Positions 25,263 through 59,838 of a stretch of 64,000 nucleotides of DNA are shown here, piece after piece; position 1 is the first letter of the stretch, and each line of letters starts with the position of its first letter. The notes beneath the pieces were generated by a model. The model did not search any database. It was not told where the DNA came from and saw nothing but the letters and a program-made list of their open reading frames with translations. The translations under genes and the position numbers were made by a program. The DNA comes from Parcubacteria group bacterium (GTDB taxonomy: Bacteria; Patescibacteriota; Patescibacteriia; Buchananbacterales; UBA6539), in the NCBI GenBank assembly GCA_002687175.1, contig NYZP01000002.1, forward strand, positions 1,171-65,170, given 5' to 3'.

Positions 25263-26234
25263 ATGCCTACAAAGACCAAGTCAAAGACCTTAAAATTTAC
25301 ACCACATGATCTGATACAACAGATTGAAGGGTATGAACAGCTTAAAGCCAAAGGGTTAACGGTGAACAGTTTAACCAAGGCCTCGGTTTTAGCTAAGAAA
25401 AAAATTGACAGATTTTTACCTAAGAAGCTGAAGTCTGTTTTGGTTATTGAAGTACCGGCCGAAACCGAAGCGGTTATTAAATTTACCAATCCCATTTTTT
25501 CTCTTAAAATTAATCTTTGTTTTGTGGTTGGTGCCAGAGCCAAAGTAACTATTTTTGATAATCAGCAACCAGCCCAAGATGCTAGCAATGAAGGCGGTGT
25601 ATATGCTATAGCAGACAAGGACAGTTTGGTTGACTATCTGATCGTCAACAGTAAGCAACCCAATACCCAGATGTTTTACGCTGCCTACCCCAGCCAAGGT
25701 ACTAAGTTTAACTGGTATTTAGTGGGTAAGCTTAACGGTGAAAAACATGATATTACGGTGGTAATTAATCATCTATTAGATAAGAGTTGGGGAACCATAA
25801 CTTCAGCCATTGATTTTGGTAAAAATTCAAAATCAATTGTTAAATTAATTAACAATCATCAAAGTAAAGGGAGTCAGGGTGATATTGTTTTTAAAGGCCT
25901 AGGAAAAGATAATGCTCGGGCCAGGATTGACGGCTTAATAGAAATTGGTAAAAAGGCAATTGATACCAATTCTTATTTACAAGAGGATGTTTTATTGGTT
26001 TCGCCAGGTAGTAATATTGATGCTCAACCAAATTTAGAGATTTTAAATAATGAAGTAAAGGCCTCTCATGGTGCAACTTTGGGAAGTGTTGATCCTAAGG
26101 TTTTGTTTTACTTAATGTCTCGAGGCCTTTCTGCCAGTCAAGCCGAGAAGCTTATCATCGGTGGTTTTTTAGGGAATATTACTCGTGATATTGAAAATGA
26201 GTTAGTGGCTGAACAGTTTAAAAATAGCTTGTAG
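25263..26234 (+). CDS. sufD: Fe-S cluster assembly protein SufD.
   Basis: Paralogous C-terminal region ([24 protein letters not shown]) resembling SufB, in operon position. Confidence 0.75.
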   Translation: MPTKTKSKTLKFTPHDLIQQIEGYEQLKAKGLTVNSLTKASVLAKKKIDRFLPKKLKSVLVIEVPAETEAVIKFTNPIFSLKINLCFVVGARAKVTIFDNQQPAQDASNEGGVYAIADKDSLVDYLIVNSKQPNTQMFYAAYPSQGTKFNWYLVGKLNGEKHDITVVINHLLDKSWGTITSAIDFGKNSKSIVKLINNHQSKGSQGDIVFKGLGKDNARARIDGLIEIGKKAIDTNSYLQEDVLLVSPGSNIDAQPNLEILNNEVKASHGATLGSVDPKVLFYLMSRGLSASQAEKLIIGGFLGNITRDIENELVAEQFKNSL

Positions 26235-26255
26235 CTTGTAGCTTGTAGCTTGTAG
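26224..26255. repeat. (TAGCTTG)x4 tandem heptamer overlapping the sufD stop, 15 nt upstream of the sufS ATG.
   Basis: Read directly. Places TAG in all three frames. Confidence 0.9.
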
Positions 26256-26269
26256 CTTGTAGGAATTTT

Positions 26270-27511
26270 ATGGCTAAGAAAAATATTAAAAATATCAAAA
26301 AGGATTTCCCAATTTTTAAGAATGTTAAAGTTCATGGCAAGGCATTTATTTATCTTGATTCAGGAGCCACCAGTCAGAAACCTAAAATGGTGGTTGAAGC
26401 CGAAGCCAACTGGTACAAAAAACATAACTCTAATATTCATCGGGGAGCCTACCAACTGGCTGAAGAAGCGACTGAGCTGTTTGAATCAACTAGGTCTAAA
26501 GTAGCTTCTTTCATAAAATCTAAAAGTCACGAGAATATTGTTTTTACCAAAGGGACTACTGATGGTATTAACTTAGTAGCTCAGTCGTGGGTTAAGCATA
26601 ATTTGAAACGTGGTGATACCATTTTAATTAGTGAGATGGAACATCATTCAAACATTGTACCTTGGCAACTGCTAGCCAAAGAAAAAGGCTTTAAGTTAAA
26701 GTTTTGGCCAGTGACTTCTGATGGTAAACTGGACATGACAAATATGAATAGTCTTTTTCGGGAAGTTAAATTTTTAAGCCTTATTCATGTCTCTAATGTT
26801 TTAGGGACAATTAATCCGGTGGAAGAGATTATTAAGAAAGCTCATCGTAAAAATATCAAAGTGTTGATTGATGCCGCCCAAAGTGTTCCCCACCGGCCAA
26901 TTGATGTTAGTAAGATGGATCCAGATTTTTTAGTGTTTTCATCCCACAAGATGCTGGGACCAACCGGTATTGGTGCTTTATACATTAAGCCAGCTCGCCA
27001 TAAAGAGGTTCGACCCTACCAAAGTGGCGGTGACATGATTTTAGAAGTTAAGCAGCAAGGTTCAACGTTTAAACCAGTGCCGGGAATATTTGAAGCCGGA
27101 ACACCAGCCTTAGCTCAAGTTTTTGCTTTTGGCAAAGCCATAGATTATTTAAATAGCGTGGGGATGCAAAATGTTTTACGTCACGAAAAGTCTTTGGTAC
27201 AATATGCTTATCAGAAGCTGTCAGCCATTCCGGAAGTAACTATTTATGGCCCTAAACCAGCAAATCGTTCTGGTCTGGTCAGTTTTACGGTCAAAGGCAT
27301 TCATGCTCATGACTTAGCAACGTTTTTAGACAAAGAAGGTGTTGCTATTCGAGCTGGTCACCACTGTGCCATGCCGCTGCATCATAAATTAAAAATTGAT
27401 GCTACAGCTAGAGCCAGTTTTTATATCTATAACACTAAACAAGACGTTGATAAGTTAGCTAAGGCATTACAATTAATTCTCAAACAATGGCAGAGCTCTA
27501 TAAACAAGTAG
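26270..27511 (+). CDS. sufS: Cysteine desulfurase SufS.
   Basis: Class V aminotransferase with PLP-lysine region SSHKMLGPTGIG and catalytic Cys region RAGHHCA. Confidence 0.9.
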   Translation: MAKKNIKNIKKDFPIFKNVKVHGKAFIYLDSGATSQKPKMVVEAEANWYKKHNSNIHRGAYQLAEEATELFESTRSKVASFIKSKSHENIVFTKGTTDGINLVAQSWVKHNLKRGDTILISEMEHHSNIVPWQLLAKEKGFKLKFWPVTSDGKLDMTNMNSLFREVKFLSLIHVSNVLGTINPVEEIIKKAHRKNIKVLIDAAQSVPHRPIDVSKMDPDFLVFSSHKMLGPTGIGALYIKPARHKEVRPYQSGGDMILEVKQQGSTFKPVPGIFEAGTPALAQVFAFGKAIDYLNSVGMQNVLRHEKSLVQYAYQKLSAIPEVTIYGPKPANRSGLVSFTVKGIHAHDLATFLDKEGVAIRAGHHCAMPLHHKLKIDATARASFYIYNTKQDVDKLAKALQLILKQWQSSINK

Positions 27512-27867
27512 TTTTTCGACACTACAAAAGTCCGTTGAATAAACGTAAATTGATCAAACCATCTAAGAAATTTAGAGGGGTTAATCCTTTTTGTGGTGAC
27601 AGTCTGGAAATTTTTGTTAAGTTAGATAAGAGTAAAAAGATTAAAGAAATTGGCTGGGAGGGCAAAGGCTGTACCATTTCTCAAGCCTCGGCTTCTATTT
27701 TAACTGAAATGATGAAAGGTAAATCTTTGGAGCAAATTAAAAAGATTAAAAGTGGTCAGTTTTTAAAGAATTTAAATATGAATTTATCACCATCCCGTCG
27801 CAAGTGTGCTTTACTTTCTTTGTATACCATTAAAGAACTGGACATTACTGATCAGGAAGCAGTTTAA
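27487..27867 (+). CDS. sufU: SUF-type NifU/SufU Fe-S scaffold protein.
   Basis: Conserved Cys ligands (NPFCGD, GKGCTISQAS, RRKCA). Confidence 0.8.
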   Translation: MAELYKQVVFRHYKSPLNKRKLIKPSKKFRGVNPFCGDSLEIFVKLDKSKKIKEIGWEGKGCTISQASASILTEMMKGKSLEQIKKIKSGQFLKNLNMNLSPSRRKCALLSLYTIKELDITDQEAV

Positions 27868-27912
27868 TTAAGTTTATTATAATTCAGGTTTGATTAACCT
27901 GTTTTTTATTAA

Positions 27913-27945
27913 ATAAAAAAGCGCGAGTTGATTGTTCTCAAAACG
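27913..27945 (-). terminator. Terminator for the convergent minus-strand pentapeptide/dapA-like operon.
   Basis: On the minus strand: stem cagcgcg...cgcgct followed by a T6 run. Confidence 0.5.
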
Positions 27946-27995
27946 CGCTGTGTATGTCCTGTTGGACAAGACTCTGATTAAGCGTAGAGTCTTTT

Positions 27996-28331
27996 CTATT
28001 CTTCCTCGACCGTAAAGGCCAGTGCTTTTACCATTGCTATGGCCTGGTCAGGGTTTATCCTGGTGCCCTGTACATTTGCAAAAGCTAGGTTCGCTCCCTC
28101 CAGATTTGCTCCTCTGAGATCCGCTGAAACAAGACTAACATTTCTTAGATCCGCGTCTCTTAGATCCGCGTCTCTCAGATCTGCGCCCCGCATGGATGGT
28201 ATCCACCTACGGTCTTTCTTTCTCAAACCTGCATTTCGAGCAGCGTTAAACCGCGGAACGTCCTTTCTCAGTTCGTCAGCCAATTCTTGATATCCAAGAT
28301 TAACCCAATCTACTTCTGTCGCGGTACCCAT
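27996..28331 (-). CDS. Pentapeptide-repeat protein (mid-GC island).
   Basis: Consecutive A(D/N)LxxA(D/N)L pentapeptides (GADLRDADLRDADLRNVSLVSADLRGANLEGANLAFANVQG). Confidence 0.75.
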   Translation of the reverse strand: MGTATEVDWVNLGYQELADELRKDVPRFNAARNAGLRKKDRRWIPSMRGADLRDADLRDADLRNVSLVSADLRGANLEGANLAFANVQGTRINPDQAIAMVKALAFTVEEE

Positions 28332-28380
28332 TTTTATCAGTCTCCTTTTCCGTTATTTGTTTTAGTTTTCTGAAAAGAGC

Positions 28381-29475
28381 TTAGGCGCAAAGTTCACTCC
28401 AGATACGGTGATCCATCAGACGTTTGGCAATATCCACTTCGTAGAACTCCTCAATTGGCTGAAGGATTTCCGGGCTTTCGGTCCAGACAATGTTCAAAGC
28501 ACCGCAAACCCTATCAACGGCTGACACGGACATCTTGCCAAGGGGCATTCGGAGAAACCCGGTGTCCATTCCCAGTCCGGCCATCATCGTTTGGATTGGA
28601 CAGGGGTTAGGGAATTTGTCTTCCACCATGACTTTTTGACCGTGGAATTCTACTTCTCGCTGCACACTCACCCCCACTAAACCGAACAGTGGTTTAAGCT
28701 GGCCGGCCAATTTTTGACCTGTTTGACTGTCACCAGATTGAAAGGCCGCCACCATCTTAGCCACTGCTGCTGGGGCAATGTTACTGATAACCGAGACAAC
28801 ACCGTTACCGTTGATGAGTGGGTCAGTCATCATTGATCCAGTGATTGAATCATCGCCACTCATAATGGAAAACTGTCGTCCGTCGATCATGTTTACGAAA
28901 CGTCGGGTTTCTTGCATGTTTGATAAACTACCAGTGGCTTCTTTGACTCCAATAACATTTGGCCACTGCTCTGCCAAAATTGCCAGATCAACTGGCATAA
29001 GCTGGCAGTTGGTTCGTCCCGGTATGGCATATACTACGTAGCCAACATCGGGGTAAGCGTCGGCCAATGTTCCGGCAATCGGACTGTGGTACTGGTCTCG
29101 CAGTTGTATTGAGGCTGGTTTGTTATAATAACAATCAACCAACAGTACCACATCGGCTCCGTCTCTGGCAGCCGCAGTTGCCATTTCCATGGCCTCCAAA
29201 GTTGAATTTGATCCAGCACCGGCCCAGGCTTGAATTTGCTTGGACGTAATCTCCGCGACAAGCCGGTTTAACTTGATGTGCATTCCTGGATCAACCGTTG
29301 GAGAACAAAACGTTGTCCCTAAAGACAGAACTCCAGTGACACCTTGCGCCATTTGAAACTCAACGTTTCTTTCCAGCTGCTTGCAGTCTTCTTTGCCCTC
29401 AAGATTCAGTGGACCAATCAAGGCAGTTACTGCTCCATTACAGATCATAACTATAACCTCCTGTTGAATTCTCAA
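28381..29475 (-). CDS. DapA-family lyase (4-hydroxy-tetrahydrodipicolinate synthase/NAL superfamily, mid-GC island). The likely start is the second Met at about 29448.
   Basis: DapA-like motifs GTTFCSP (vs GTTGE), CYYNKP (vs PYYN) and the Schiff-base lysine motif VIGVKEATG. AGGAGG RBS 7 nt before the ATG of MICNGA. Confidence 0.8.
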   Translation of the reverse strand: MRIQQEVIVMICNGAVTALIGPLNLEGKEDCKQLERNVEFQMAQGVTGVLSLGTTFCSPTVDPGMHIKLNRLVAEITSKQIQAWAGAGSNSTLEAMEMATAAARDGADVVLLVDCYYNKPASIQLRDQYHSPIAGTLADAYPDVGYVVYAIPGRTNCQLMPVDLAILAEQWPNVIGVKEATGSLSNMQETRRFVNMIDGRQFSIMSGDDSITGSMMTDPLINGNGVVSVISNIAPAAVAKMVAAFQSGDSQTGQKLAGQLKPLFGLVGVSVQREVEFHGQKVMVEDKFPNPCPIQTMMAGLGMDTGFLRMPLGKMSVSAVDRVCGALNIVWTESPEILQPIEEFYEVDIAKRLMDHRIWSELCA

Positions 29476-29818
29476 CGTTTTTTATTCCTGATGGAATGAT
29501 TTACCTTAGTTCAAATATGACCTTTTGTCAACCACAGTCGCTCGAGAGCGACGTGGTCAATATCCTTGTAATTTAATGAGTAAACCCGCCACCTTCTACA
29601 ATGTGACGAGGTAAACAAAAAACTGCCTGTCCAAGCAGATTATTTTGTACCAACTTAGTAAAAAGGTAATCAACCTGGACTAGAAGTCCGGTTTCCTAAC
29701 CTTTCCGTCGGAGACGAGATGCGCCTTCGGCGATTTGTTGTTAGCACAGTAATTCATATAATTAGATTATCATTACCCTAGTTTTTCGTCAATATAAATG
29801 TTAAAATATGAGTAAATT

Positions 29819-32188: not shown

Positions 32189-32230
32189 AGAATTTAATTT
32201 TATTTAATAACTAATTTCATAATTAAATAT

Positions 32231-32662
32231 ATGACTAAACAATCAAAAAGTATTCTAATTTTTCTTGCAGTTGTTTTAATAATTGTAGCAGCAGTTTATA
32301 GTTTTTATTTAGCGCCAAACCGGCAACAAGCGAATAATCAAGTTGAAACGGAAGTAATTCTAGACCCCGTCAGAATTAGTCAGGAAGTTGCTGAGGGAAG
32401 TGCGGTATTGCTAGATGTTCGTACAGCATTGGAGCTTCAGGAAGATGGTTTTGCAGTAAGCTCAACTCATTTTGATTTAGTTCGGTTGCAAAATGGTGAG
32501 TTACCAAATATTAGTAAAGAGATAAAAATTTATACTTATTGTAAAGCCGGAGGTAGAGCTGGAAAAGCTGAAATTATTTTGGAAGAAAATGGATTTATCG
32601 ATGTTGTTAACATCGGAGGCCTCGTTGATTGGATTGATAGTGGAGGACAAATTATAAAATAA
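32231..32662 (+). CDS. Rhodanese-domain sulfurtransferase with an N-terminal TM anchor.
   Basis: Rhodanese active-site loop CKAGGRAG. Confidence 0.7.
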   Translation: MTKQSKSILIFLAVVLIIVAAVYSFYLAPNRQQANNQVETEVILDPVRISQEVAEGSAVLLDVRTALELQEDGFAVSSTHFDLVRLQNGELPNISKEIKIYTYCKAGGRAGKAEIILEENGFIDVVNIGGLVDWIDSGGQIIK

Positions 32663-32716
32663 TTTATTTTACAACCTAAACTCCCCTCCCGAGAGTTTTT
32701 AGGTTATAATAAGTTA

Positions 32717-33220
32717 ATGAAAAAAGTATTGGTTATTGGTTCAAATGGATCAGGAAAATCTACCTTTGCTAACAAGCTTAGCCGGAAGATAAGACTTCCT
32801 TTAATTCATCTTGATCAGCACTACTGGAAACCGGGTTGGCAGAGAACATCTAAGGAGGAGTGGCGCACAAAAGTCACCAGATTACTTCAAAAAGATTCCT
32901 GGATCATGGATGGCAACTACCAAAGCTCGCTTGATATTAGGATACCTGCCAGTGATACAATCATTTGGCTTGATTTGAATCGCTTTGTCTGTTTATGGCG
33001 AGTCCTGAAAAGAAAATTGTTGCAAGATAGAGTTGATAAGCTAAATGGTTGCCAGGAAAGAGTTGACATTCATTTTATAAAGTGGATTTTATGGAATTAC
33101 CCCAGACACGATAAACCAGAAATTAGAAGATTAATAGCAAAACATAAACATAAACAAATCTTTGTCCTAAAGTCACAGCAGAACACTAAGAATCTGCTTG
33201 ACTCCCTTAGTAATAATTAA
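32717..33220 (+). CDS. P-loop NTPase, adenylate-kinase-like (topology modulation protein family).
   Basis: Walker A GSNGSGKST near the N-terminus in a small 167-aa protein. Confidence 0.6.
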   Translation: MKKVLVIGSNGSGKSTFANKLSRKIRLPLIHLDQHYWKPGWQRTSKEEWRTKVTRLLQKDSWIMDGNYQSSLDIRIPASDTIIWLDLNRFVCLWRVLKRKLLQDRVDKLNGCQERVDIHFIKWILWNYPRHDKPEIRRLIAKHKHKQIFVLKSQQNTKNLLDSLSNN

Positions 33221-33222
33221 CT

Positions 33223-40949: not shown

Positions 40950-42431
<1,482 letters not shown>

Positions 42432-42526
42432 AGGGAGATATAAGGATGGAGAGCCGGAATTCCGCTCTTCATCACTAGTCGCCATTCTGAGCAATCAGAG
42501 TGAGGGAATTAGTGTAAATATGAATT

Positions 42527-42562
42527 GGTTTTCCGCCAGAGGCGGACCAGCCTCTGGCTGGT
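42527..42562. repeat. Double-hairpin repeat element, copy B (ccgcc-aga-ggcgg, then ccagcc-tct-ggctgg), followed by a terminator-like hairpin with a T7 run (42590-42615).
   Basis: The second stem carries compensatory changes relative to copy A (cccgcc/ggcggg versus ccagcc/ggctgg). Confidence 0.7.
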
Positions 42563-42763
42563 TGTCACATTTTGTTTGTTAAATAAAAGAACCGTCTTAA
42601 CGGCGGTTTTTTTGTTTGTTAGTATTGACAAAATTGAGATCCTGTGATAAACATAGATTGCCTTTTGTGAGGAAAGGAAAACATGGTGCGTTGCAGTACC
42701 TTTCAAGTAGATAAATCAGCTAGGCCACTTACGGCCACGCAACACCTCACAGGAGGAAGCACC

Positions 42764-43177
42764 ATGGGAAGCTTCGGCGGCTGGTTAACACCAGGAGGTG
42801 GATCATCAGGCCCTGACCCGCGAGAGCAGGTCGAGCGATCCATCAAAGAGCATGGTTGGGTTTTGGAAGCGGCTCGTGTAGCCTTTAATTCCCAAGACCC
42901 ACTCCATTGCTACTACGGTGAAGACTGCAACCCTGACGAATATCTTGGTTACGCTGAGGAATTTGTCAAAATGTTCGAACTGACAGATGTATATGTCGAT
43001 ACCATGGAAACGGTACGCGACAGACATCCAATAACTTCTCTGGACTTTGTCCGGGAAATTGTCAGACGAACATTTGGCCCTTGTCAGTTTATCAGGGGTT
43101 GGGTTTCTTCGGAAGACATTGAAAACATCGCTCAGACTTTGGTCAATGGCGGTGTTAAGATGTCAGCTGAAGGATAG
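42764..43177 (+). CDS. Hypothetical protein of 137 aa on a mid-GC island between the 16S gene and the tRNA cluster.
   Basis: Perfect AGGAGG RBS 7 nt before ATG 42764. The longer track ORF starts at 42683. TTGACA at 42626 upstream. No recognised domain. Confidence 0.5.
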   Translation: MGSFGGWLTPGGGSSGPDPREQVERSIKEHGWVLEAARVAFNSQDPLHCYYGEDCNPDEYLGYAEEFVKMFELTDVYVDTMETVRDRHPITSLDFVREIVRRTFGPCQFIRGWVSSEDIENIAQTLVNGGVKMSAEG

Positions 43178-43217
43178 GAGGATGCCTCCTCCTAACATGC
43201 AGTCGATGCCCAACCGC

Positions 43218-43265
43218 ATCTCACAACCGCTAGCGTATGTTTTTCGCCAGCGGTTATTTTTTAAA
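43218..43265 (+). terminator. Rho-independent terminator after the 137-aa gene.
   Basis: Stem aaccgctagcg...cgccagcggtt followed by a T6 run. Confidence 0.5.
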
Positions 43266-43319
43266 ATAATATTGACTAAACAGACTTTTATTGTTATATT
43301 AGTTTATGTTTAAAATTAA

Positions 43320-43396
43320 GGGCGATTAGCTCAGTTGGTTAGAGCGCGTCACTGATAATGACGAGGTCCGAGGTTCAAATCCTCGATCGCCCACCA
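43320..43396 (+). tRNA. tRNA-Ile (GAT), CCA encoded.
   Basis: Cloverleaf GGGCGAT...ATCGCCC with anticodon loop CTGATAA. Confidence 0.9.
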
Positions 43397-43452
43397 TTAT
43401 ATATTAATATGCCGAGTTAGCTCAGTGAGGTCCCAAACCTTCTGGTGAATCG

Positions 43453-43527
43453 GCCGAGTTAGCTCAGTGGTAGAGCGAAGGACTGAAAATCCTTGCGTCC
43501 CCAGTTCAATTCTGGGACTCGGCACCA
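43453..43527 (+). tRNA. tRNA-Phe (GAA), CCA encoded, embedded in a 17-bp inverted repeat.
   Basis: Cloverleaf GCCGAGT...ACTCGGC with anticodon loop CTGAAAA. Confidence 0.9.
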
Positions 43528-43624
43528 GAAGGTTTGGGATAAACTCCGGACTGAAATTATTGTATCTCAATTCAGTTCCGGGACTTGGTACAATATTTCT
43601 CTCCTAACGGAGTGAAAACATTGG

Positions 43625-43701
43625 CGGGGTGTGGCGCAGTTGGCTAGCGCGCGTCGTTTGGGACGATGAGGTCGTGGGTTCGAGTCCCACCACCCCGACC
43701 A
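43625..43701 (+). tRNA. tRNA-Pro (TGG), CCA encoded.
   Basis: Matches the E. coli tRNA-Pro architecture, with anticodon loop TTTGGGA. Confidence 0.9.
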
Positions 43702-43744
43702 TCACAACATAGCGTATTTATTATTGTTTGGACAGTATTAAAAT

Positions 43745-43772
43745 TGTCATCCCTGCGAAAGCAGGGATCCAG
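43745..43772. repeat. Left 28-bp terminal inverted repeat of the GIY-YIG cassette (tgtcatccctgcgaaagcagggatccag).
   Basis: Exact reverse complement of 44070-44097. Each arm is itself a hairpin. Confidence 0.8.
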
Positions 43773-43779
43773 AAACGCT

Positions 43780-44067
43780 ATGATGACCTATTACGTTTAT
43801 ATACTTGCCAGTAAAAGAAATGGAACGCTCTATGTTGGTGTTACTAATGACTTGGCAAGAAGGGCCTATGAGCATAGAGCAGGCTTAATTAAAGGTTTTA
43901 CAAAAAAATACGGGGTTAAGGTGCTAGTTTATTTTGAAGAGTTTGACGATATTGGTTTTGCAATTCAGAGGGAGAGAAATTTAAAAAAATGGAAACGTGA
44001 CTGGAAATTAAATCTAATTGAGAGTTCTAATCCGGACTGGGAAGATTTATACTTTGAATTAGATTAA
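43780..44067 (+). CDS. GIY-YIG nuclease family protein (UPF0213/YhbQ-like, about 95 aa).
   Basis: GIY-YIG motif YYVYILASKRNGTLYVGVTNDLARRAYEH. The start is the Met at 43780 or 43783; the upstream part of the track ORF overlaps tRNA-Pro. Confidence 0.8.
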   Translation: MMTYYVYILASKRNGTLYVGVTNDLARRAYEHRAGLIKGFTKKYGVKVLVYFEEFDDIGFAIQRERNLKKWKRDWKLNLIESSNPDWEDLYFELD

Positions 44068-44069
44068 TA

Positions 44070-44097
44070 CTGGATCCCTGCTTTCGCAGGGATGACA
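44070..44097. repeat. Right 28-bp terminal inverted repeat of the GIY-YIG cassette.
   Basis: ctggatccctgctttcgcagggatgaca, the reverse complement of the left arm. Confidence 0.8.
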
Positions 44098-44106
44098 GAA
44101 AAGTGT

Positions 44107-44181
44107 GCGGGTATAGTATAGTGGCTATTATGTCAGGTTTCCAACCTGAAGAGGCGGGTTCGATTCCCGCTACCCGCTCCA
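44107..44181 (+). tRNA. tRNA-Gly (TCC).
   Basis: Near-identical architecture to E. coli glyT, with anticodon loop TTTCCAA. Followed by a terminator at 44195-44230. Confidence 0.9.
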
Positions 44182-44280
44182 AGAGTAAATCGCCTTCAGG
44201 CCCGCTTAGTCGCGAGACTAGCGGTTTTTTGATATAATTCAATCAGCAAAAATTCTAAAAAAGAAAGTAGCAACTAAAGC

Positions 44281-46538: not shown

Positions 46539-46613
<75 letters not shown>

Positions 46614-46658
46614 ATTAGCAAATGGCAAATAGCATTTTGCAAATCTGCTACAATCGAT

Positions 46659-46707
46659 TAGCCATTAGCCATTAGCCATTAGCCATTAGCCATTAGCCAT
46701 TAGCCAT
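46659..46707. repeat. (TAGCCAT)x7 tandem heptamer ending 2 nt before the infB ATG.
   Basis: Read directly. Places TAG in all frames. Confidence 0.9.
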
Positions 46708-46709
46708 TT

Positions 46710-50027: not shown

Positions 50028-50083
50028 GTGAATATAGAATCTGGAATGTGGAATTAGGATAAAAGTCTAATCCCCTATTCCAG

Positions 50084-50104
50084 ATTCCTAATTCCTAATT
50101 CCTA
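50084..50104. repeat. (ATTCCTA)x3 tandem heptamer immediately upstream of clpP, embedded in a larger palindrome (about 50041-50096).
   Basis: Read directly. ggaattagga and tcctaattcc inverted copies. Confidence 0.8.
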
Positions 50105-50108
50105 TATT

Positions 50109-50684: not shown

Positions 50685-50960
50685 TGCTAACATTGAATAA
50701 CTTTAACAACTTTAAAATCTATGAACAGGAATAGTAGGTTTTGATCTGTAATAATAGAGAGCCGGGAATGGTGGAAGCCTGGCATTACCACAAAACTGAA
50801 ACGAGCCTGGGAGATGGTTTGGTGAACATTAATTAGCCAAACCCGGCAGCGTCCGTAATCAAGCGTTAACTATTATCGCTTTGTCATTCTGAACTTGATT
50901 CAGGATCTCATTGGACTGAGATAGTGAAAGCGAACAAAATTTACCGTTTACTTGACGGTT

Positions 50961-50990
50961 TTTTTGTTAATAAAGGTGGTACCGCGGACC
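50961..50990 (+). terminator. Rho-independent terminator closing a roughly 250-nt noncoding transcript downstream of clpP.
   Basis: Stem accgtttacttgacggt followed by a T7 run. Confidence 0.5.
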
Positions 50991-51106
50991 TCTTGATTTA
51001 TTTTGAGATAGAATCCCGTCCTTTAGACACAATATTTATTGTGTTTAGAGGGTGGGATTTTTTCGTGCCCATATTAATCGTTCTTTTAAATAAGGAGAAG
51101 AGCTTT

Positions 51107-51577
51107 ATGTTTAAAGAAAAGAAAGAAGTGATTGAATTTTGTTCATTAGTTGAGAAAGATATTCCTAAGCTATATAGCCTTATGGAACCTGAGATGCGTC
51201 AAGGGAGACTTTTGCCTAGATCAATTAAAGATATAATTGGTATTACTAAGTCTATTGGTGTTCTAAGGTACAATGGTGTAATTGCCGGAACCATTGGCCT
51301 TGTTCCTTATGGACCTTGGGCTGAAATAATTATGTGGTGGGTCAACGTTAAATATCGAGGACGAAGTTTTAGTTCTCAACTACTTCATGCAGCTATTAAC
51401 GAAGCTAAGACCAAATTATTTGAATCTGTTTTTTTATGCACGACATCAGTTCGAATAAATGATTATTTGTTACTTAATGGTTTTAGTAAGATCCATAAAG
51501 ATAATGTACCCAAGGAGAAGTGGCAGGGCTATCCTGAAGGCAGAGATGCTCAAGTATTTATTACGAGACTTCTTTAG
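51107..51577 (+). CDS. GNAT-family N-acetyltransferase.
   Basis: AAGGAG RBS before ATG 51107. Acetyl-CoA-binding motif region (WVNVKYRGRSFSSQLL). The track ORF start at 50924 is probably too far upstream because it spans the terminator. Confidence 0.7.
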   Translation: MFKEKKEVIEFCSLVEKDIPKLYSLMEPEMRQGRLLPRSIKDIIGITKSIGVLRYNGVIAGTIGLVPYGPWAEIIMWWVNVKYRGRSFSSQLLHAAINEAKTKLFESVFLCTTSVRINDYLLLNGFSKIHKDNVPKEKWQGYPEGRDAQVFITRLL

Positions 51578-52120: not shown

Positions 52121-52499
52121 CCTAGAAAAGGCAGTGTCACTCAATTTCGGGGACAAGATTTCTTGTTCCCTTTTTTTATTAAAAATGGCTGTCTCTTGCC
52201 AAAAATTAATAAATATGGTAGTGTATCAATGAACATAATAATTAACTGATATAGAGAATCATTCGATAGGAGATTCACTCAGAATAGGTTTAATTAAGCA
52301 GATTATTGTACTAAAACTCATTTTTCCTAACTATTTATCACCCAGGAATATCAAATTAACTTCAGGAAAAATTAGCTTCAATTACTTGACTGATGTTTTT
52401 AACATCATCTTAAAACATTTGGGTTAATCATTTTTGGTTAGCCAATCTCCTCTACAACTTAGATCGACTTGTTCTCTATCTCTTTGGAGATAGAAACGT

Positions 52500-54026: not shown

Positions 54027-54032
54027 CTAGGT

Positions 54033-54054
54033 GTTTAGGTTCTTAGGTTTTTAG
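54033..54054. repeat. 22-mer GTTTAGGTTCTTAGGTTTTTAG, identical to 22420-22442 beside the polA start.
   Basis: Read directly in both places. Confidence 0.8.
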
Positions 54055-54107
54055 GGATTACTGCGTAATCAACATAGCGTTTTTATTCATAATAACAATG
54101 AAACGCT

Positions 54108-54485
54108 ATGACAAAACTATTTTCTTATAAGGACTTAATTTATTGGCAACGATCAATGGATTTAGTAGTAGCTATTTATCAGTTAGCCAGCCATTTTCCT
54201 AAAACTGAAATTTATGGATTAGCATCTCAGATGAAACGATCATCAATTTCTATTCCCTCTAACGTTGCCGAAGGTAGAAGGAGAAGTAGCCGAAAAGAGT
54301 ACCGTCATTTTTTAAATATTGCTTATGCTTCTGGAGCAGAATTAGAGACCCAAATTGAGATAGTAAAAAGATTACCCTTTGGAAAAACTTTAAATTTTAA
54401 AATAGCTGATAGTTTGTTAGAAGAAGTAATGAAAATGTTAAATAAAACTTTTTCGACACTTGGCTCTAACAACCTAACAACCTAA
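54108..54485 (+). CDS. Four-helix-bundle protein (TIGR02436 family, often found in 23S rRNA intervening sequences).
   Basis: Conserved blocks SIPSNVAEG...EYRHFLNIAYASGAELETQ. Confidence 0.75.
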   Translation: MTKLFSYKDLIYWQRSMDLVVAIYQLASHFPKTEIYGLASQMKRSSISIPSNVAEGRRRSSRKEYRHFLNIAYASGAELETQIEIVKRLPFGKTLNFKIADSLLEEVMKMLNKTFSTLGSNNLTT

Positions 54486-54489
54486 CAAC
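54466..54489. repeat. (CTAACAAC)x3 tandem octamer overlapping the stop of the preceding gene and ending 7 nt before the ymdB-like ATG.
   Basis: Read directly. Places TAA in all frames. Confidence 0.9.
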
Positions 54490-54496
54490 CTAGACC

Positions 54497-55291
54497 ATGA
54501 AAATATTGTTTTTTGGTGACATCATCGGCAAGCTTGGTCGTAAAGCTTTCGTCAAGATACTCCCAGAACTTAAACAGGAGTATCAGCCAGATTTAGTTAT
54601 TGCTAATGTAGAAAATTTAGCCCATGGCGCTGGTGTAACAGCCAAAACGCTCAGTGAAATAGTTGAAGCCGGGGCAGATTTTTATACTTCAGGCAACCAT
54701 ATTTTCTCTAAGCCTGAAGCGGAGAGCCTGCTTAATGATCCAGCTTCAAATTTGATTAGGCCGGCTAACTATTTTGCTGATAAACCAGGAAAAGGATTCA
54801 AGGTTATCGAGGTTGGATCAAGATCACTTTTAGTGATTAATTTAATTGGTCAGGTTTTCATGAAAGATGAGGTTGATTCACCATTTGAAAAAATTGATGA
54901 GATTTTATCCGAAGTTGATCATAAAAATTTAGCTGGTATTATCGTTGATTTTCACGCTGAAGCTACCTCGGAAAAAAATGCTTTTGGTCATTATGTTGAT
55001 GGTCGGGTTAGTGCAGTTTTAGGAACACATACCCACATACCCACAGCTGATCAAAAAATATTGTCCAAAGGTACGGCCTACGTTACTGATATTGGTATGG
55101 TTGGTGAGTACGATTCAGTCATTGGAGATAAGAAGGAACCAATTATCGCCAGTTTTTTAGCTGGTGAAAAACCAAAGATTGAAGTTGCTGAAAGTGGTGA
55201 AGCCATAGTCTCGGCCATACTTTTGGAGATTGATCCTGATACCAAAAAGGCAACAGGGATTAGTCGCGTAGACAGAAAAATTAAAGTATAG
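54497..55291 (+). CDS. ymdB: YmdB-like metallophosphoesterase (TIGR00282).
   Basis: Motifs FFGDIIG, NVEN and GNH, with rny-ymdB synteny. Confidence 0.85.
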   Translation: MKILFFGDIIGKLGRKAFVKILPELKQEYQPDLVIANVENLAHGAGVTAKTLSEIVEAGADFYTSGNHIFSKPEAESLLNDPASNLIRPANYFADKPGKGFKVIEVGSRSLLVINLIGQVFMKDEVDSPFEKIDEILSEVDHKNLAGIIVDFHAEATSEKNAFGHYVDGRVSAVLGTHTHIPTADQKILSKGTAYVTDIGMVGEYDSVIGDKKEPIIASFLAGEKPKIEVAESGEAIVSAILLEIDPDTKKATGISRVDRKIKV

Positions 55292-55364
55292 TATCATAAG
55301 GTAGTAATATATTTATCAACATTTATAAATTATTAATTGAAACAAAAGAAAGGAGATAACAACA

Positions 55365-55745
55365 ATGAACAAAGCCGAGTTAATAGATGTTATTAGTGAA
55401 AAAGTAGGTATTTCTAAAAAAGAAACTGAGGACGTGTTAGATACTCTAACTAACACTATTATAAAAAAATTACAGGATGGCGAGGAAGTAACACTAACTG
55501 GTTTTGGAGCCTTTTCCGCTCGAACTCGTAAAGGTAGGGTGGGAGTTAATCCACGCAACCCTTCTGAAAAAATAGATATTCCTTCGGTGGTTGTACCTAA
55601 GTTTAAAGCTGGTAAAAATTTGAAAGAGGCTTTAAAGGGTGGTAGCTCAAATAGTAATGAGCCTGAATCAACACCTGAACCAGTAGAAAATTCTGCTCAA
55701 GAATCAGAGTCGACTACTGAAGAAGATTCTAATACTGCAGAATAG
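55365..55745 (+). CDS. hup: HU-family DNA-binding protein with an acidic C-terminal tail.
   Basis: MNKAELIDVISEK...TGFGAFSARTRKGRVGVNPRN is the canonical HU arm. Confidence 0.9.
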   Translation: MNKAELIDVISEKVGISKKETEDVLDTLTNTIIKKLQDGEEVTLTGFGAFSARTRKGRVGVNPRNPSEKIDIPSVVVPKFKAGKNLKEALKGGSSNSNEPESTPEPVENSAQESESTTEEDSNTAE

Positions 55746-55869
55746 AATAATAAGCAAACTTTTAAAACAAAAAATCTCTACCCTCGTAGGGGTTTTTTAT
55801 TTTAAGTTAAATGATTGACAAAATTAGGTCAATGTAGTAAAATGCTCTAATCTGAATAATGAATATTTT

Positions 55870-56670
55870 ATGATAAATGACAATAAATTAATTAAAACTC
55901 TTAAGTTAAGCATATTTTTAATGCTTGCTCTTCTAGTGGTTACCGGCTGCGGTCGTGGTAATGGTGATGAAATAGAGGAGGTAGCCAAGAAGCAAGTAAA
56001 AATTCAAACAATCCAAAAGCAAAATCAAGTCACTACTGATTTAACTGTTTCTGGTACTATAATTCCCAAAGAATACACTTTGATCAGAAGTTTAACGCCG
56101 GGCACTGTTGAATATGTTGTGCCAGTTGGTTCACCTGTTTCAGTTGGAGAATCTTTATTCAGAATTCGTGATGAAAATATCGAAAATAATTATTTCAATT
56201 CATTACAAAATTTTAGACAAACTGAGATTTTAGCAAATCAAAGAGTTAATCAAGCAGAGTTAGCATTAAGTAGTACTCAAGCTAGATTTGACTTAGCTCA
56301 AAGAAATTTAGAAACAGCAGTTTTACAAAGTGAACAGAATCTTATCAATGCTCAAGATTCTGCTGTCATTGAGTATAATTCTACTTATAACACTTTGAAT
56401 CAGTTCTTTATTTTTGTCAGTGCTGGTGAATTAACTAATGATGAATTTGTTTATCGTAATGTTGGAACCTCTCAACTAGAACTTAGAGGGAACACCGAAC
56501 TTGCCTATCTGTCAGCAGTAAAGTCATTTTTAAAATTATCAAATTTGGTTAATTTTACTAATATAGACCAATCACTTAATGATATCACCCAAGTTCAGCA
56601 TAAGGCTCCCCTTACGACCGTTTGCTCCCGCTCGAGGCGGGCAAGATTGGCTTTTGGTTATTCTATTTAA
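55870..56670 (+). CDS. Putative lipoprotein.
   Basis: Lipobox LLVVTGC after a signal peptide. The rest is unknown. The GC-rich 3' end contains a cccgc-tcgag-gcggg hairpin. Confidence 0.5.
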   Translation: MINDNKLIKTLKLSIFLMLALLVVTGCGRGNGDEIEEVAKKQVKIQTIQKQNQVTTDLTVSGTIIPKEYTLIRSLTPGTVEYVVPVGSPVSVGESLFRIRDENIENNYFNSLQNFRQTEILANQRVNQAELALSSTQARFDLAQRNLETAVLQSEQNLINAQDSAVIEYNSTYNTLNQFFIFVSAGELTNDEFVYRNVGTSQLELRGNTELAYLSAVKSFLKLSNLVNFTNIDQSLNDITQVQHKAPLTTVCSRSRRARLAFGYSI

Positions 56671-57646
56671 TTAAATAAGGTTCACCAAAACAAGGAATCT
56701 TGTAATTATCATAGTCCCAGACCTTGACTGCCTTGCATTTTAAATAAGAGTCAATAATATTATTGACTAGGTTTGGTGTTGCTCCAGGAAAAGAATGAAC
56801 CTCATCCTGAAAAATATTCTCTTGAAGAGTAGGTGAACCATGTAATACAACAACCGCGGCGTGTGAATTTTCAACTTTATTGTTTCTTATAATAGATTTT
56901 CCTCCAACATCAAAACCTTCATGGCCACAGTCTTGGGCTAAATTATTTTCAAATAAACCATTAGAGCCATCGATACTAAAACAGCCCCACATAGCGTGTC
57001 TAATTACACTATCTCTAATAATCATTCCTTTATCAGGTGAAGGAATGGACACTCCGTTACGAGAGTATTCTACTACTACATTTTCTAGAACCGAAGCCTT
57101 ACCAACCAAGTTAATCCCTCCCCAATCTGCATAATGAGGTTCTTTACTATCAGAAGTAAAAATTATTGGTTGTTCTTTTGTGCCTTTAGCAATTAAGGAA
57201 CCAACTACAAAAATACTTGAATGGGAGTCTGCGTATTCTTTTAGTCTAGTAGGGTCGTCATCATTAAAGCCATCAGCCTTAATTTCGATATCAAAACTTG
57301 AAGGCAAACTGTCTTGACCAGCAGCAAATGTTATAATAGTTCCTGGCTCAATCGTGAGAGTTGAAAGAATTATAACATCGCCTGTTATATAGACATCTCT
57401 TGACCAAGTTTGTTTGCCAGTAAAAGTTCCCTTAACATTGGATAAATCTTTTGCCTCTTTTTGGATAGATTTTTTTTCAATTTCCGAAAGAGTATTCCCA
57501 GTAAATTTTGCAACTTGGTTTTGATAAATTTTACTATAAATACCAGTATATACTTTTTTTGTTATAAATATAGCTACAATAATAAATATAACAATAAATA
57601 TAACAACAAAAATTATTATGAAAGGATTTTTCTTCTTTTTTTTCAT
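56663..57646 (-). CDS. Membrane-anchored right-handed parallel beta-helix repeat protein (pectin-lyase fold).
   Basis: N-terminal TM and repeated beta-helix rungs (GFDVGGKSIIRNNKVENSHAAVVVLHGSP). Confidence 0.6.
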   Translation of the reverse strand: MKKKKKNPFIIIFVVIFIVIFIIVAIFITKKVYTGIYSKIYQNQVAKFTGNTLSEIEKKSIQKEAKDLSNVKGTFTGKQTWSRDVYITGDVIILSTLTIEPGTIITFAAGQDSLPSSFDIEIKADGFNDDDPTRLKEYADSHSSIFVVGSLIAKGTKEQPIIFTSDSKEPHYADWGGINLVGKASVLENVVVEYSRNGVSIPSPDKGMIIRDSVIRHAMWGCFSIDGSNGLFENNLAQDCGHEGFDVGGKSIIRNNKVENSHAAVVVLHGSPTLQENIFQDEVHSFPGATPNLVNNIIDSYLKCKAVKVWDYDNYKIPCFGEPYLIK

Positions 57647-57695
57647 ACATTCATTTTACCAAAAAACCACCTCTAATACGAGGCGATTTTAAAAG

Positions 57696-57768
57696 TGGGC
57701 GCAGAGGGACTCGAACCCCCGACCATCTCCTTAAGAGGGAGTTGCTCTACCAACTGAGCTATGCACCC
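57696..57768 (-). tRNA. tRNA-Lys (CTT), no CCA encoded.
   Basis: The reverse complement folds as GGGTGCA...TGCGCCC with anticodon loop CTCTTAA. Confidence 0.85.
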
Positions 57769-57789
57769 CAGTAAATTATAAATGTTAAA

Positions 57790-57865
57790 TGGTGCGCCCG
57801 GCAGGAGTCGAACCTGCAACCCCTTGGTCCGAAGCCAAGTGCTCTATCCATTGAGCTACGGACGC
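57790..57865 (-). tRNA. tRNA-Arg (TCG), CCA encoded.
   Basis: The reverse complement folds as GCGTCCG...CGGGCGC with anticodon loop CTTCGGA. Confidence 0.85.
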
Positions 57866-58050
57866 ATGTAATCTATTGTAAATTTTAGTGCTCCCCACCC
57901 CACACTAAAGTGTGGTTCGGACAGGTATCCTTTGAGCCCTGCCCGACTTGCTTTGCAAGGCGGGTACGGACGCATATAATAACTTCCCTAAGATAACATA
58001 AATGTAAAAAAAAATCAATCCTACGCCTATAAGATTGATTTTTTCATTTA

Positions 58051-59091
58051 TCAGTTGATCAGTTCTGGATTAGTCATGTGGGACTGAGCAGTTTCTTTAT
58101 TAATCGTACCCTCGTTAAACATATTGATTAAATTTTGATCCATGGTAATCATCCCCTCTTCGGCACTGGTTTGAATGACAGTTTTAATCTGGGCAATTTT
58201 ATTTTCCCGAACCAAGTTAGAAATAGCTGGAATATTAAGCATCACTTCCCTGGTAGCAATTCGTCCGCCTTTGGCTTTAGGAATTAACTGCTGGGAAATA
58301 ACAGCATTTAAGGTCATTGAAACCTGGAGTCTAATTTGTTGTTGTTGATGGGAAGGAAAAATATCTATAATACGGTCAATGGTTTGAGCGGCATTATGAG
58401 TGTGCAAGGTGGCTAAAACTAAATGACCAGTTTCCGCCAAAGTAATGGTGGCAGCGATTGTTTCCAAATTTCTCATCTCACCAACCATAATGACGTTGGG
58501 ATCTTGACGTAGAACATGGATCAGAGCGCTTTGAAAGGTGATCATGTCCGTGTGTAACTGTCGCTGTTTAATAATACTTTTATTTGGTTTAAACAAAAAT
58601 TCAATTGGATCTTCCAGGGTCATAATATGGGCGGAACGGTTGGCATTAATGAAATTAACCATTGCCGCTAAAGTGGTTGATTTACCACAACCAGTTGGAC
58701 CAGTGACCAAAATCAAGCCCTGCTTCATTTCTAACAGTTTATAAGCAATCTCTGGCATTAAAATATCTTCCATCGTTGGAATATTTGAAGAAATAACACG
58801 AGCCACTAAACCGAGATGATCTTTTTCCCAATGGAGATTAACCCTAAACCGATGCCCTGATTTTATTTCATAGGAAAGGTCTAACTCTTTTTCTTTTAAA
58901 TATATTTCTTTTTGTTTATCAGTAAGAATTGGATAAATTAATTCTTCAGCAATTTTTTGGGTAATACTACCCTGACCTTTGATTGGTCCTAGCTTTCCGT
59001 CAATTCTTAAAGTAGGAGACATACCAACGATCAGATGAAGGTCAGAAGCCTTGTTGTCCACGGCAATTTTAAATAAATCGCCTAATTTCAT
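58051..59091 (-). CDS. pilT: Type IV pilus retraction ATPase PilT.
   Basis: Walker A GPTGCGKST and the PilT AIRNLIRE-like motif (ISNLVRENKIAQI). Confidence 0.9.
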   Translation of the reverse strand: MKLGDLFKIAVDNKASDLHLIVGMSPTLRIDGKLGPIKGQGSITQKIAEELIYPILTDKQKEIYLKEKELDLSYEIKSGHRFRVNLHWEKDHLGLVARVISSNIPTMEDILMPEIAYKLLEMKQGLILVTGPTGCGKSTTLAAMVNFINANRSAHIMTLEDPIEFLFKPNKSIIKQRQLHTDMITFQSALIHVLRQDPNVIMVGEMRNLETIAATITLAETGHLVLATLHTHNAAQTIDRIIDIFPSHQQQQIRLQVSMTLNAVISQQLIPKAKGGRIATREVMLNIPAISNLVRENKIAQIKTVIQTSAEEGMITMDQNLINMFNEGTINKETAQSHMTNPELIN

Positions 59092-59113
59092 AGGATTAAA
59101 TATTTAAAATAAA

Positions 59114-59806
59114 TTAATTCCATTTTTTATTTTCTAAGGCTTTGCTAGCCGCATTAACTTGAGCCTCTTGTTTGCTAGAGCCGGTACTGGTTCCGATCAA
59201 TTCTTTTTCTAAGTATACACCGACTTGAAATTTTTTGTCATGATCGGGGCCACTCTCTTTTAATACTTTGTAACTTGGAGTAATACCTAATTTTTCCTGG
59301 GAGATCTCTTGAAATTTACTTTTGGGATCAAGGTACAATTCATTTGATAAGATGTGGGGTAGCTCCGGAATTAGATTTTCGTTAATAAATTTACTAGCTT
59401 GTTTGTAACCGCCATCAAGATGAATAGCACCAATTAAAGCTTCATAAGTATTTGCTAAAATATAATTTCTAGCCTTACCATTGGTATCCTTAGCTTCCCC
59501 CTTACTTAAATACAAATAATCCTCCAAATTAATTTTTCTGGCTAGTTTAGCCAACATTTGACTGTTTACAATACTGGCACGCCAGTTAGTAAGTTCACCT
59601 TCAGGATTAGGATAGTTTGAATAAAGATGCTCGGTGGTAACAAGTTCCAGAACAGCATCACCTAAAAATTCTAGCCGTTCATTATGACCTAACTTAAAAC
59701 CAGAGTTTTCGTTAATATAGGAACGATGGACAAAGGCTTGTTTAAGTAGATCTTTATTTTTAAAATTAACTTTTAGCTTTTTTTCAAGTTTAGAAAAATC
59801 CTTCAT
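59114..59806 (-). CDS. rnc: Ribonuclease III.
   Basis: RNase III signature ERLEFLGDAVL and a C-terminal dsRBD. The start is taken at MKDFSK (59806) because the longer track ORF extends through the upstream heptamer repeat. Confidence 0.85.
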   Translation of the reverse strand: MKDFSKLEKKLKVNFKNKDLLKQAFVHRSYINENSGFKLGHNERLEFLGDAVLELVTTEHLYSNYPNPEGELTNWRASIVNSQMLAKLARKINLEDYLYLSKGEAKDTNGKARNYILANTYEALIGAIHLDGGYKQASKFINENLIPELPHILSNELYLDPKSKFQEISQEKLGITPSYKVLKESGPDHDKKFQVGVYLEKELIGTSTGSSKQEAQVNAASKALENKKWN

Positions 59807-59824
59807 GGTAGAGATTATAGCTGG

Positions 59825-59838
59825 TAGCTCGTAGCTTG
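59825..59838. repeat. TAGCTCG-TAGCTTG heptamer pair upstream of rnc (opposite orientation relative to the gene compared with the sufS copy).
   Basis: Read directly. Confidence 0.6.

Follow-up and report, generated by a model that had tools for sequence, protein, structure and literature searches.

Tandem 7- and 8-nucleotide repeats as arms of palindromes between genes in a Patescibacteria genome

Arrays and partner arms in the window

The DNA analysed here is a 64-kb stretch, 38% G+C, of a Patescibacteria genome (hereafter the window), in which short tandem repeats with units of 7 or 8 nucleotides (nt) occupy gaps between genes. Six such arrays are flanked by the genes sufD/sufS, infB, clpP, ymdB, polA, and rnc, in agreement with a preliminary description of the stretch, and the genes for RNase III (rnc, 59114-59806) and RNase Y are both encoded in the window. 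The closest public relatives of the window, found by an InfB-anchored genome scan, are named Candidatus Buchananbacteria or “Patescibacteria group”, and the gene order infB-rbfA-nrnA-clpP...rny-ymdB-HU is kept among relatives. Comparisons were made with a clade set of 74 non-redundant loci (817 kb), collected by the InfB-anchored genome scan and a ClpP-anchored metagenome scan, and with an outgroup set of 67 loci (1.10 Mb) from bacteria outside the Candidate Phyla Radiation (CPR); L-numbers such as L006, L007, and L010 are labels of collected loci. A scan of the window at the Rfam gathering thresholds matched only the 16S rRNA, tRNAs, and a T-box, with no match at the arrays. The arrays, their partner arms, and the gene enclosed by one pair of arms are the following:

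22421-22492, - strand: polA palindrome of a divergent spacer; its arms, 22421-22450 and 22461-22492, consist of TTAGSTTN / NAASCTAA units
22423-22442, - strand: imperfect TTAGGTTC array of 2.5 copies, 3 nt from the polA ATG (22419)
26225-26262, + strand: perfect (TAGCTTG) array of 5.4 copies upstream of sufS, a solo array that takes up the sufD-sufS spacer and whose first unit supplies the final codons of sufD (sufD stop TAG, 26232-26234; sufS ATG, 26270)
46611-46645, + strand: distal infB arm, an imperfect (GCAAATN) array of 4 copies that begins at the 3' end of tRNA-Cys (46539-46612)
46657-46708, + strand: proximal infB arm, a perfect (ATTAGCC) array of 7.4 copies that ends 1 nt before the infB ATG (46710)
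50030-50057, + strand: distal nrnA-clpP arm of GAAT(N3) heptamers, beginning 2 nt past the stop of the nrnA-like DHH gene
50067-50104, + strand: proximal nrnA-clpP arm
50084-50104, + strand: perfect (ATTCCTA) array of 3.0 copies within the proximal nrnA-clpP arm, 4 nt before the clpP ATG (50109)
54027-54055, + strand: left rny-ymdB arm, (TTAGGTTN) in 2.6 copies directly after the rny stop, which holds GTTTAGGTTCTTAGGTTTTTAG at 54033-54054
54108-54485, + strand: gene for a four-helix-bundle / 23S rRNA-intervening-sequence protein, in the “loop” between the rny-ymdB arms
54466-54492, + strand: perfect (CTAACAAC) array of 3.4 copies, 4 nt before the ymdB ATG (54497)
54466-54493, + strand: right rny-ymdB arm, made of the CTAACAAC array and containing the stop of the enclosed gene (18/20 complementary, P<0.004)
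59812-59874, - strand: rnc palindrome; the arm at 59812-59840 has TAGCTSG units, and its partner is at 59852-59874
59818-59840, - strand: imperfect TAGCTSG array of 3.3 copies, 11 nt from the rnc ATG (59806)

The six arrays of the preliminary description lie where it placed them and are far above chance: the window holds five perfect period-7 or period-8 arrays of at least 2.5 copies, compared with a mean of 0.03 and a maximum of 1 in 200 first-order Markov simulations. The copy numbers given earlier were too low for three arrays (for example, TAGCTTG has 5.4 copies rather than 4). Stop codons in all three frames, read in the sense of the gene, were found in four of the six arrays; the clpP array covers only two frames and the rnc array lacks such stops altogether, so that a role as a stop-codon insulator fails for the latter and is incomplete for the former. 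The proposal of a single element family applies to the sequences only in part. Several arrays share a TAGCT/TAGGT core, and one 22-nt stretch, GTTTAGGTTCTTAGGTTTTTAG, is identical at 22421-22442 (polA) and 54033-54054; this second copy, absent from the preliminary description, lies directly 3' of the rny stop and not ahead of a start. Otherwise, the units differ from site to site, and only the TAGCT/TAGGT-core family recurs, at 3-4 window sites. The TTAGSTTN family is found at 3 window sites and in L007, L010, and L137-L139, and the other palindromes in the 64 kb of genome seen are unrelated in sequence.

Most arrays are half of an imperfect palindrome that can form a hairpin and occupies the interval between two genes; the partner arms of five of the six had been overlooked. 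These partners lie within ~120 nt, or 411 nt apart in one case, and each is itself made of complementary units. The palindrome spans the short spacer from the end of the upstream gene, either a protein gene or a tRNA, to the next start. Complementarity was significant relative to shuffled flanks at 5 sites (infB and polA, P=0.003; clpP, ymdB, and rnc, P<0.004), with the following pairings: (i) at infB, 46618-46645 pairs weakly with 46656-46683 (28 nt, 71% complementary); (ii) at clpP, 50030-50057 pairs with 50067-50094 (28 nt, 79%; fold -26.4 kcal/mol); (iii) at rny-ymdB, 54027-54054 pairs with 54466-54493 (28 nt, 86%) across the 411 nt that separate them; (iv) at polA, 22422-22450 pairs with 22461-22485 (19 nt, 84%; fold -19.7 in the sense and -21.9 in the antisense direction); and (v) at rnc, 59812-59833 pairs with 59852-59873 (22 nt, 77%; fold -24.1 in the sense direction). 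As sense RNA, the clpP (z -4.1), rnc (z -3.3), and polA (z -2.1) palindromes fold better than shuffled sequences.

For the sufS array, no complementary arm was found in the flanks (P=0.99), and its fold was not significant. The array ends 7 nt before the sufS ATG and overlaps the sufD stop. In four relatives the sufD-sufS junction measures 2-18 nt and has no array, whereas in the window it measures 35 nt, nearly all of it array, which argues for growth in place.

One perfect octamer array, (CACATACC) × 2.5 at 55026-55045, lies within the ymdB coding sequence and is the sole perfect complex-unit 7/8-mer array inside a gene of the window.

Distribution, stability, and turnover among relatives

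Period-7 arrays occur at 4.4 per 100 kb in the clade loci and 1.4 per 100 kb in the outgroup loci, and period-8 arrays at 3.8 and 0.36 per 100 kb, respectively, an enrichment of 3-10 times; for periods 6 and 9, no enrichment was found between the two sets. Among the spacer arrays, 36 of 48 have period 7 or 8 (5 nt, 2; 6 nt, 1; 7 nt, 22; 8 nt, 14; 9 nt, 4; 10 nt, 1). Complex-unit arrays were 15-25 times denser in spacers (0.19-0.33 per kb) than in coding sequence (0.013 per kb) across the 74 clade loci. The two-armed organisation also extends beyond the window: arms periodic at a lag of 7 or 8 nt were found in 43 of 235 clade hairpins, compared with 12 of 229 in the outgroup. An apparent restriction to co-directional spacers (41 co-directional, 2 divergent, and 0 convergent; 19:1:1 under a stricter count) is suggestive and confounded by the anchoring of the loci on infB and clpP, and we did not retain it.

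The nrnA-clpP junction illustrates how these elements vary between species. A GAAT(N3)/(N3)ATTC palindrome with homologous arms is common to the window, L009, L010, and L093, with 79% column identity. The GAAT/ATTC cores are kept across these four species although their InfB proteins are only 66-68% identical to that of the window, and relatives that are closer by InfB identity carry other units in the same spacer. Palindromes with quite different units in both arms occupy this spacer in L006, L007, L086, L089, L095, L112, L154, and others. In further relatives, the nrnA-clpP spacer is 18-27 nt long and has no hairpin. Taken over the orthologous spacers compared, those that hold no array span just 2-30 nt.

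At rny-ymdB, the four-helix-bundle gene matches PF05635 and TIGR02436 and has a weak similarity to Avd. It lies inside the inverted repeat in the window (54027-54493), L007 (16700-17171), and L010 (17938-18436), an arrangement that mirrors the placement of its relatives in rRNA intervening sequences; a small conserved hairpin (“caacatagcg...cgct”) stands immediately 5' of its ATG. In L007 and L010 the arms are TTAGCTTN and NAAGCTAA, and in the window they are TTAGGTTN and NAACCTAA, that is to say, both arms are changed relative to L007/L010; between the window and L010, the change is TTAGGTT/AACCTAA versus TTAGCTT/AAGCTAA. In L006 this junction holds a plain 8-mer palindrome and lacks the gene. 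The four-helix-bundle gene was considered as a source of the palindromes and rejected, the gene being present at one orthologous site in 3 of the 74 loci.

Some tRNA genes are bracketed in a similar way. In L007, tRNA-Lys lies between (GTTAACT)n and (TTAACAG)n arms. In the window, tRNA-Phe (43453-43527) is enclosed by a perfect 17-bp stem formed by 43431-43447 and 43523-43539 (fold -57.5 kcal/mol, z -5.6), and a partial copy of the tRNA-Phe 5' end lies just upstream (43411-43430). Pairing flanks with z<-3 were found for 7 of 75 clade tRNAs. In L134 (16145-16290) and L130 (17873-17990), a tRNA-Arg is followed by a partial copy of its own 3' end, with heptamer arrays upstream; these copies are possibly scars of integration.

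Between strains of one species, the arrays are stable. Four other assemblies, including the metagenome-assembled genome GCA_002434675.1, belong to the same species as the window, and at the sufS, infB, clpP, and ymdB arrays they are 99.9-100% identical to it, with no gaps. Pairwise alignments of near-identical strains from different samples (96-100% identity, 289 kb in total) revealed no insertion or deletion of 7 or 8 nt, or of a multiple thereof, in the arrays or elsewhere; these are comparisons of consensus assemblies, from which rare variants could escape. The arrays are not hypervariable. The preliminary description had raised phase variation, in which slipped-strand changes of copy number would switch the downstream genes as at contingency loci. 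Perfect multi-copy arrays near gene starts, and copy numbers that do differ between species, are what such loci would be expected to display. However, copy number was identical in the four independent assemblies, the 289 kb devoid of 7/8-nt indels included array-bearing spacers, the genes concerned are housekeeping genes (infB, clpP, polA, sufS, and rnc), and the arrays lie outside the downstream open reading frames (ORFs), so that a change of length would be expected to leave the reading frame unaffected. We therefore consider phase variation extremely unlikely.

The arrays are thus steady between strains and turned over between species, a pattern that bears on a neutral origin. Slippage together with template switching at quasi-palindromes could inflate A/T-rich spacers in a lineage of reduced repair, and the products would be tolerated as junk. 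The elements are present or absent by species at orthologous junctions and are dispensable, their location shifts between species around rnc, the arrays take in the stop and last codons of the neighbouring gene, and the G·U test described below gave no sense-strand bias; in addition, polymerase slippage has been put forward as a general hypothesis for heptamers (PMC4692102). By contrast, the GAAT/ATTC cores at clpP have outlasted considerable divergence of InfB in four species while closer relatives have other units there, the arms around the four-helix-bundle gene are conserved in three species and change on both arms, the same junction repeatedly bears hairpins of unrelated sequence, and the arrays do not vary between strains. 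In light of these observations, a purely neutral origin has a low, although appreciable, probability.

RNA-level and DNA-level readings

All six window arrays end within 1-11 nt of an ATG, and placement before start codons had been read as a possible special signal. This did not hold across the clade. Among complex-unit arrays in co-directional spacers, with tRNAs counted as features, 15 lay closer to the start and 14 closer to the end of the upstream gene (n=29). In 110 structured co-directional spacers, the median distance from the upstream stop to the main hairpin is 4.5 nt, and that from the hairpin to the next start is 11.5 nt; the hairpin is nearer the stop in 73 and nearer the start in 34. 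Because the spacers are very short and are filled by the palindromes, one arm necessarily abuts the start codon; the simplest reading is that the placement is largely a consequence of spacer geometry. For annotation, a repeat beside a start is not equivalent to a start-codon signal where spacers are this short.

The flanked genes do lack a Shine-Dalgarno (SD) sequence, as had been described, but so do ~80% of the clade genes, and the trait does not set them apart. An SD-like motif precedes only ~20% of the genes of the window and its relatives despite a canonical anti-SD sequence at the 16S 3' end. The start context is dominated by T at -1 and by A at -4 to -6. A CTAA start context as the seed of the arrays was rejected, since CTAA lies upstream of only 6-12% of genes.

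A residual signal favouring the earlier start-codon reading comes from arrays of the NAASCTAA family, which end 2-3 nt before the ATG at several genes, in some cases with no detectable partner (L007 infB, L137-L139 clpP, and L015 infB); in L139, a canonical TTGACA-17-TATACT promoter is followed by such an array as the leader. The G-poor array next to the ATG might accordingly act as a single-stranded binding site for S1, Csp, or a comparable RNA-binding protein, or as an unstructured landing region by which SD-independent initiation is driven or tuned, with the upstream arm as an optional anti-leader. The position of all six window arrays, the low G content of the ATG-proximal arms (0-17% in five of six), and a precedent in Beggiatoaceae, Bacteroidetes, and Cyanobacteria (PMC4679880) are consistent with such a leader. 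So is the polarity of the periodic palindromes across the clade, in which purines are concentrated in the 5' arm in 26 cases and in the 3' arm in 11, although this polarity is identical on both strands and therefore uninformative on the direction of transcription. Weighing on the other side are the near-equal numbers of start-proximal and stop-proximal clade arrays, the arrays that flank tRNAs or follow stop codons, and the mixed orientation of the units (“TAG” for sufS and infB, “CTA” for the others). No single binding protein would fit, because the units differ by site. The ATG-proximal arm is more perfect than the distal arm in the window, but not significantly so across the clade (7 versus 4), and this candidate feature was rejected. 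Overall, we regard the leader as possible but unlikely.

Several features connect the palindromes with RNA. The stems that bracket tRNAs or the four-helix-bundle gene, together with the presence of RNase III and RNase Y genes, point towards RNA roles. Measured against mononucleotide shuffles, clade spacers between co-directional and convergent genes have mean structure z-scores of -2.2 to -3.6, and divergent spacers -0.7, as is commonly seen for 3'-end or intercistronic structures. The periodic hairpins were rejected as Rho-independent terminators: with a mean G+C of 0.25 and a T-rich tail in 16%, they do not have the G+C-rich stem and U-tract of such terminators, canonical examples of which are present elsewhere in the window.

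We propose that the repeats are slippage-grown intergenic 7-8-mers organised as palindromes between genes, similar to repetitive extragenic palindromic (REP) elements, with a role in RNA punctuation, and we assign this reading a probability of about 50%. Replication slippage would enlarge an array in place, beginning with a seed at a gene boundary; at sufD/sufS, the candidate seed TAGCTTGTAG includes the sufD stop. The arms may be kept complementary by selection for pairing, by intrastrand template switching, or by both. In polycistronic RNA, they would form A/U-rich stem-loops of 20-30 bp, or long-range stems, which may act like REP elements or like the processing stems of rRNA and intervening sequences (IVSs), that is, as punctuation for RNA processing and stability. 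These stems may also sequester the G-poor leader of the downstream gene.

Five points weigh against this proposal. (i) As sense RNA, the infB palindrome folds weakly (z -0.66), and sufS stands without a partner arm. (ii) Many relatives have no hairpin at the same junctions, and the elements are therefore dispensable. (iii) In a G·U strand test with strand-symmetric selection of hairpins (picking them from sense-strand folds biases the test), the periodic spacers had no sense-strand advantage (8 sense-better versus 11 antisense-better, n=19), whereas ordinary structured spacers at the same loci were sense-better in 68 and antisense-better in 26; this result weakens the case for selection on the sense RNA, with small n. 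(iv) The z-scores of spacer structure by orientation used mononucleotide shuffles. (v) The loci were anchored on infB and clpP, and orthologous spacers consequently enter the counts repeatedly.

The absent sense-strand G·U signature also fits the idea, raised in the preliminary description, of an element acting at the level of DNA. Regulators or nucleoid proteins might bind the repeated units, or the arrays might be part of promoter architecture. The rnc array, alone among the arrays, lies between -35-like and -10-like hexamers: a promoter-like CTTACA-17-TATAAT (59807-59842, - strand), with a perfect -10 hexamer, overlaps the ATG-proximal rnc arm. TATAAT or TACAAT boxes stand in several loops, among them a TACAAT box in the infB palindrome loop (46649-46654), and the clpP arms combine conserved 4-nt cores with variable 3-nt spacers. 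A preprint on Vibrio cholerae describes tandem heptads that recruit regulators (bioRxiv 10.1101/2021.05.14.444153). However, promoter-like hits were no commoner than in shuffled sequences, and a promoter in the loop was rejected as a general explanation. Units that differ at almost every site would demand many regulators in a genome that has very few, contiguous 7-8-bp sites would face different sides of B-DNA, and most arrays lie inside apparent operons, for example, sufD-sufS and nrnA-clpP. Binding or promoter functions in DNA thus appear quite improbable.

The TATAAT-N7-ATG arrangement at rnc suggests a leaderless mRNA. TAnAAT motifs also lie 6-9 nt before the ATG at several other genes (e.g., 32717 and 56663), and together these genes suggest that some mRNAs of this genome have no leader or a very short one.

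The RNA-punctuation proposal can be carried further. The palindromes could constitute a genome-wide punctuation that replaces SD sites and terminators, with stems that are cut by RNase III or opened by the terminating ribosome, which would free the G-poor leader and couple or meter translation of the next gene. The tRNAs and small genes would be excised likewise, and pairing in multiple registers would allow the length of the stem to be tuned by slippage over evolution. We hold this extended scheme to be rather doubtful.

Several neighbouring features were recorded in addition. A full-length T-box leader (126.7 bits, 50712-51026) lies downstream of clpP and is followed by an ORF (51107-51577) annotated in the matching contig as a GNAT acetyltransferase, an unusual cargo for a T-box. 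A conserved hairpin (ttctctatct...ggagatagaaa, 52470-52499) is situated directly before the rny start in the window and eight relatives (within L006-L013) and may be an autoregulatory leader. The region 40951-44250 contains a 16S rRNA gene with no 23S gene following, then an ORF, tRNA-Ile, tRNA-Phe, tRNA-Pro, a GIY-YIG ORF, and tRNA-Gly. A 15-nt tandem repeat of 2.9 copies (28143-28185) inside a pentapeptide-repeat protein gene (27996-28331, - strand) is an ordinary coding repeat. In L171, the suf operon is immediately preceded by a diversity-generating retroelement (bAvd and reverse transcriptase; 74-1473).

Comparison with known repeat systems

The heptamer repeats of cyanobacteria are known as short tandemly repeated repetitive (STRR) sequences. 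Heptameric simple sequence repeats (SSRs) are over-represented in many bacterial genomes, and in Nostoc and Xanthomonas they are notably intergenic; some form inverted pairs (arrays in Xanthomonas), and the preference for 7 nt has been attributed, as a hypothesis, to polymerase slippage (PMC4692102). Their units include GGGAATC in Xanthomonas and GGGGA(T/C)T and TTTTGAA/TTCAAAA in Nostoc (PMC4692102; bioRxiv 10.1101/2022.06.06.494920), and the Nostoc TTTTGAA/TTCAAAA repeats near starts alter reporter expression (bioRxiv 10.1101/2022.06.06.494920). The present arrays resemble this class in that (i) 7-nt units are arranged head to tail; (ii) they are strongly intergenic; (iii) period 7 exceeds the neighbouring periods; (iv) length and sequence in the same spacer vary between related species; and (v) some are inverted pairs and some lie near starts or promoters. 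They differ in that almost every site has its own unit instead of one dominant unit per genome, 8-mers are as common as 7-mers, the two-arm inverted layout is the rule (five of six) and not the exception, and the host, a Patescibacterium of reduced genome, has very short spacers.

The TAACTGA repeats of marine Beggiatoaceae, some Cyanobacteria, and Bacteroidetes (MacGregor 2015; PMC4679880) end a few nt before starts, overlap upstream stops, provide stops in all frames, and precede non-SD genes, including housekeeping genes; they are predicted to be unstructured, are almost never inverted, and have a strong forward orientation to starts, and their translational role is a proposal (PMC4679880). 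The arrays described here share with them tandem heptamers close to starts, the overlap with stops, stops in all three frames (at four of the six arrays), and non-SD housekeeping genes downstream. Unlike the TAACTGA repeats, they are mostly palindrome arms (five of six with a significant complementary arm). As to placement, start-proximal and stop-proximal arrays are equally common across the clade, the six window arrays all lie within 11 nt of an ATG, and the NAASCTAA arrays end 2-3 nt before theirs. None of 171 loci, nor the window, contains tandem TAACTGA.

REP elements and bacterial interspersed mosaic elements (BIMEs) are extragenic palindromes of enterobacteria, a single conserved family that is mobilised by RAYT transposases and has no tandem sub-repeats. 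They have no U-tract, are patchy between relatives, and are thought to affect mRNA stability and processing. The palindromes described here are likewise imperfect, patchy, dispensable, and devoid of a U-tract, and they begin just past stops, at the 4.5-nt median given above for the 110 co-directional spacers; by contrast, their arms are periodic and mostly locus-specific. No transposase was found among the 10 window ORFs scanned, a scan that included no search aimed at RAYT.

RNase III processing stems surround rRNA and the 23S IVSs that carry PF05635 genes. A long predicted duplex similarly brackets a PF05635 gene (28 nt, 86%) and tRNAs (tRNA-Phe in the window and tRNA-Lys in L007) here, and an rnc gene is present. 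The differences are the mRNA operon context in place of rRNA and the fact that most of the palindromes have short loops and bracket nothing.

The contingency SSRs of Haemophilus and Neisseria have mostly 1-5-nt units, are hypervariable between strains, and belong to surface or variable genes, where they lie within the ORF or the promoter spacer (PMC2651432). Perfect tandem repeats near gene starts are common to both systems, and the 7-8-nt units, the location outside housekeeping ORFs, and the invariance between strains distinguish the present arrays. Heptads also occur as protein-binding sites, such as TTTTGAT of the Vibrio ctxAB promoter and the operators of SARP and CtsR.

No report of such repeats in Patescibacteria/CPR was found in the literature. 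Intergenic heptamers, familiar for decades from cyanobacteria, Xanthomonas, and Beggiatoaceae, are here extended to the CPR, and with a distinct architecture, in which locus-specific units form complementary arms that span the spacer from stop to start. With tiny spacers and rare SD sites, these genomes offer a clean system for distinguishing slippage debris, RNA-processing stems, and translation leaders.

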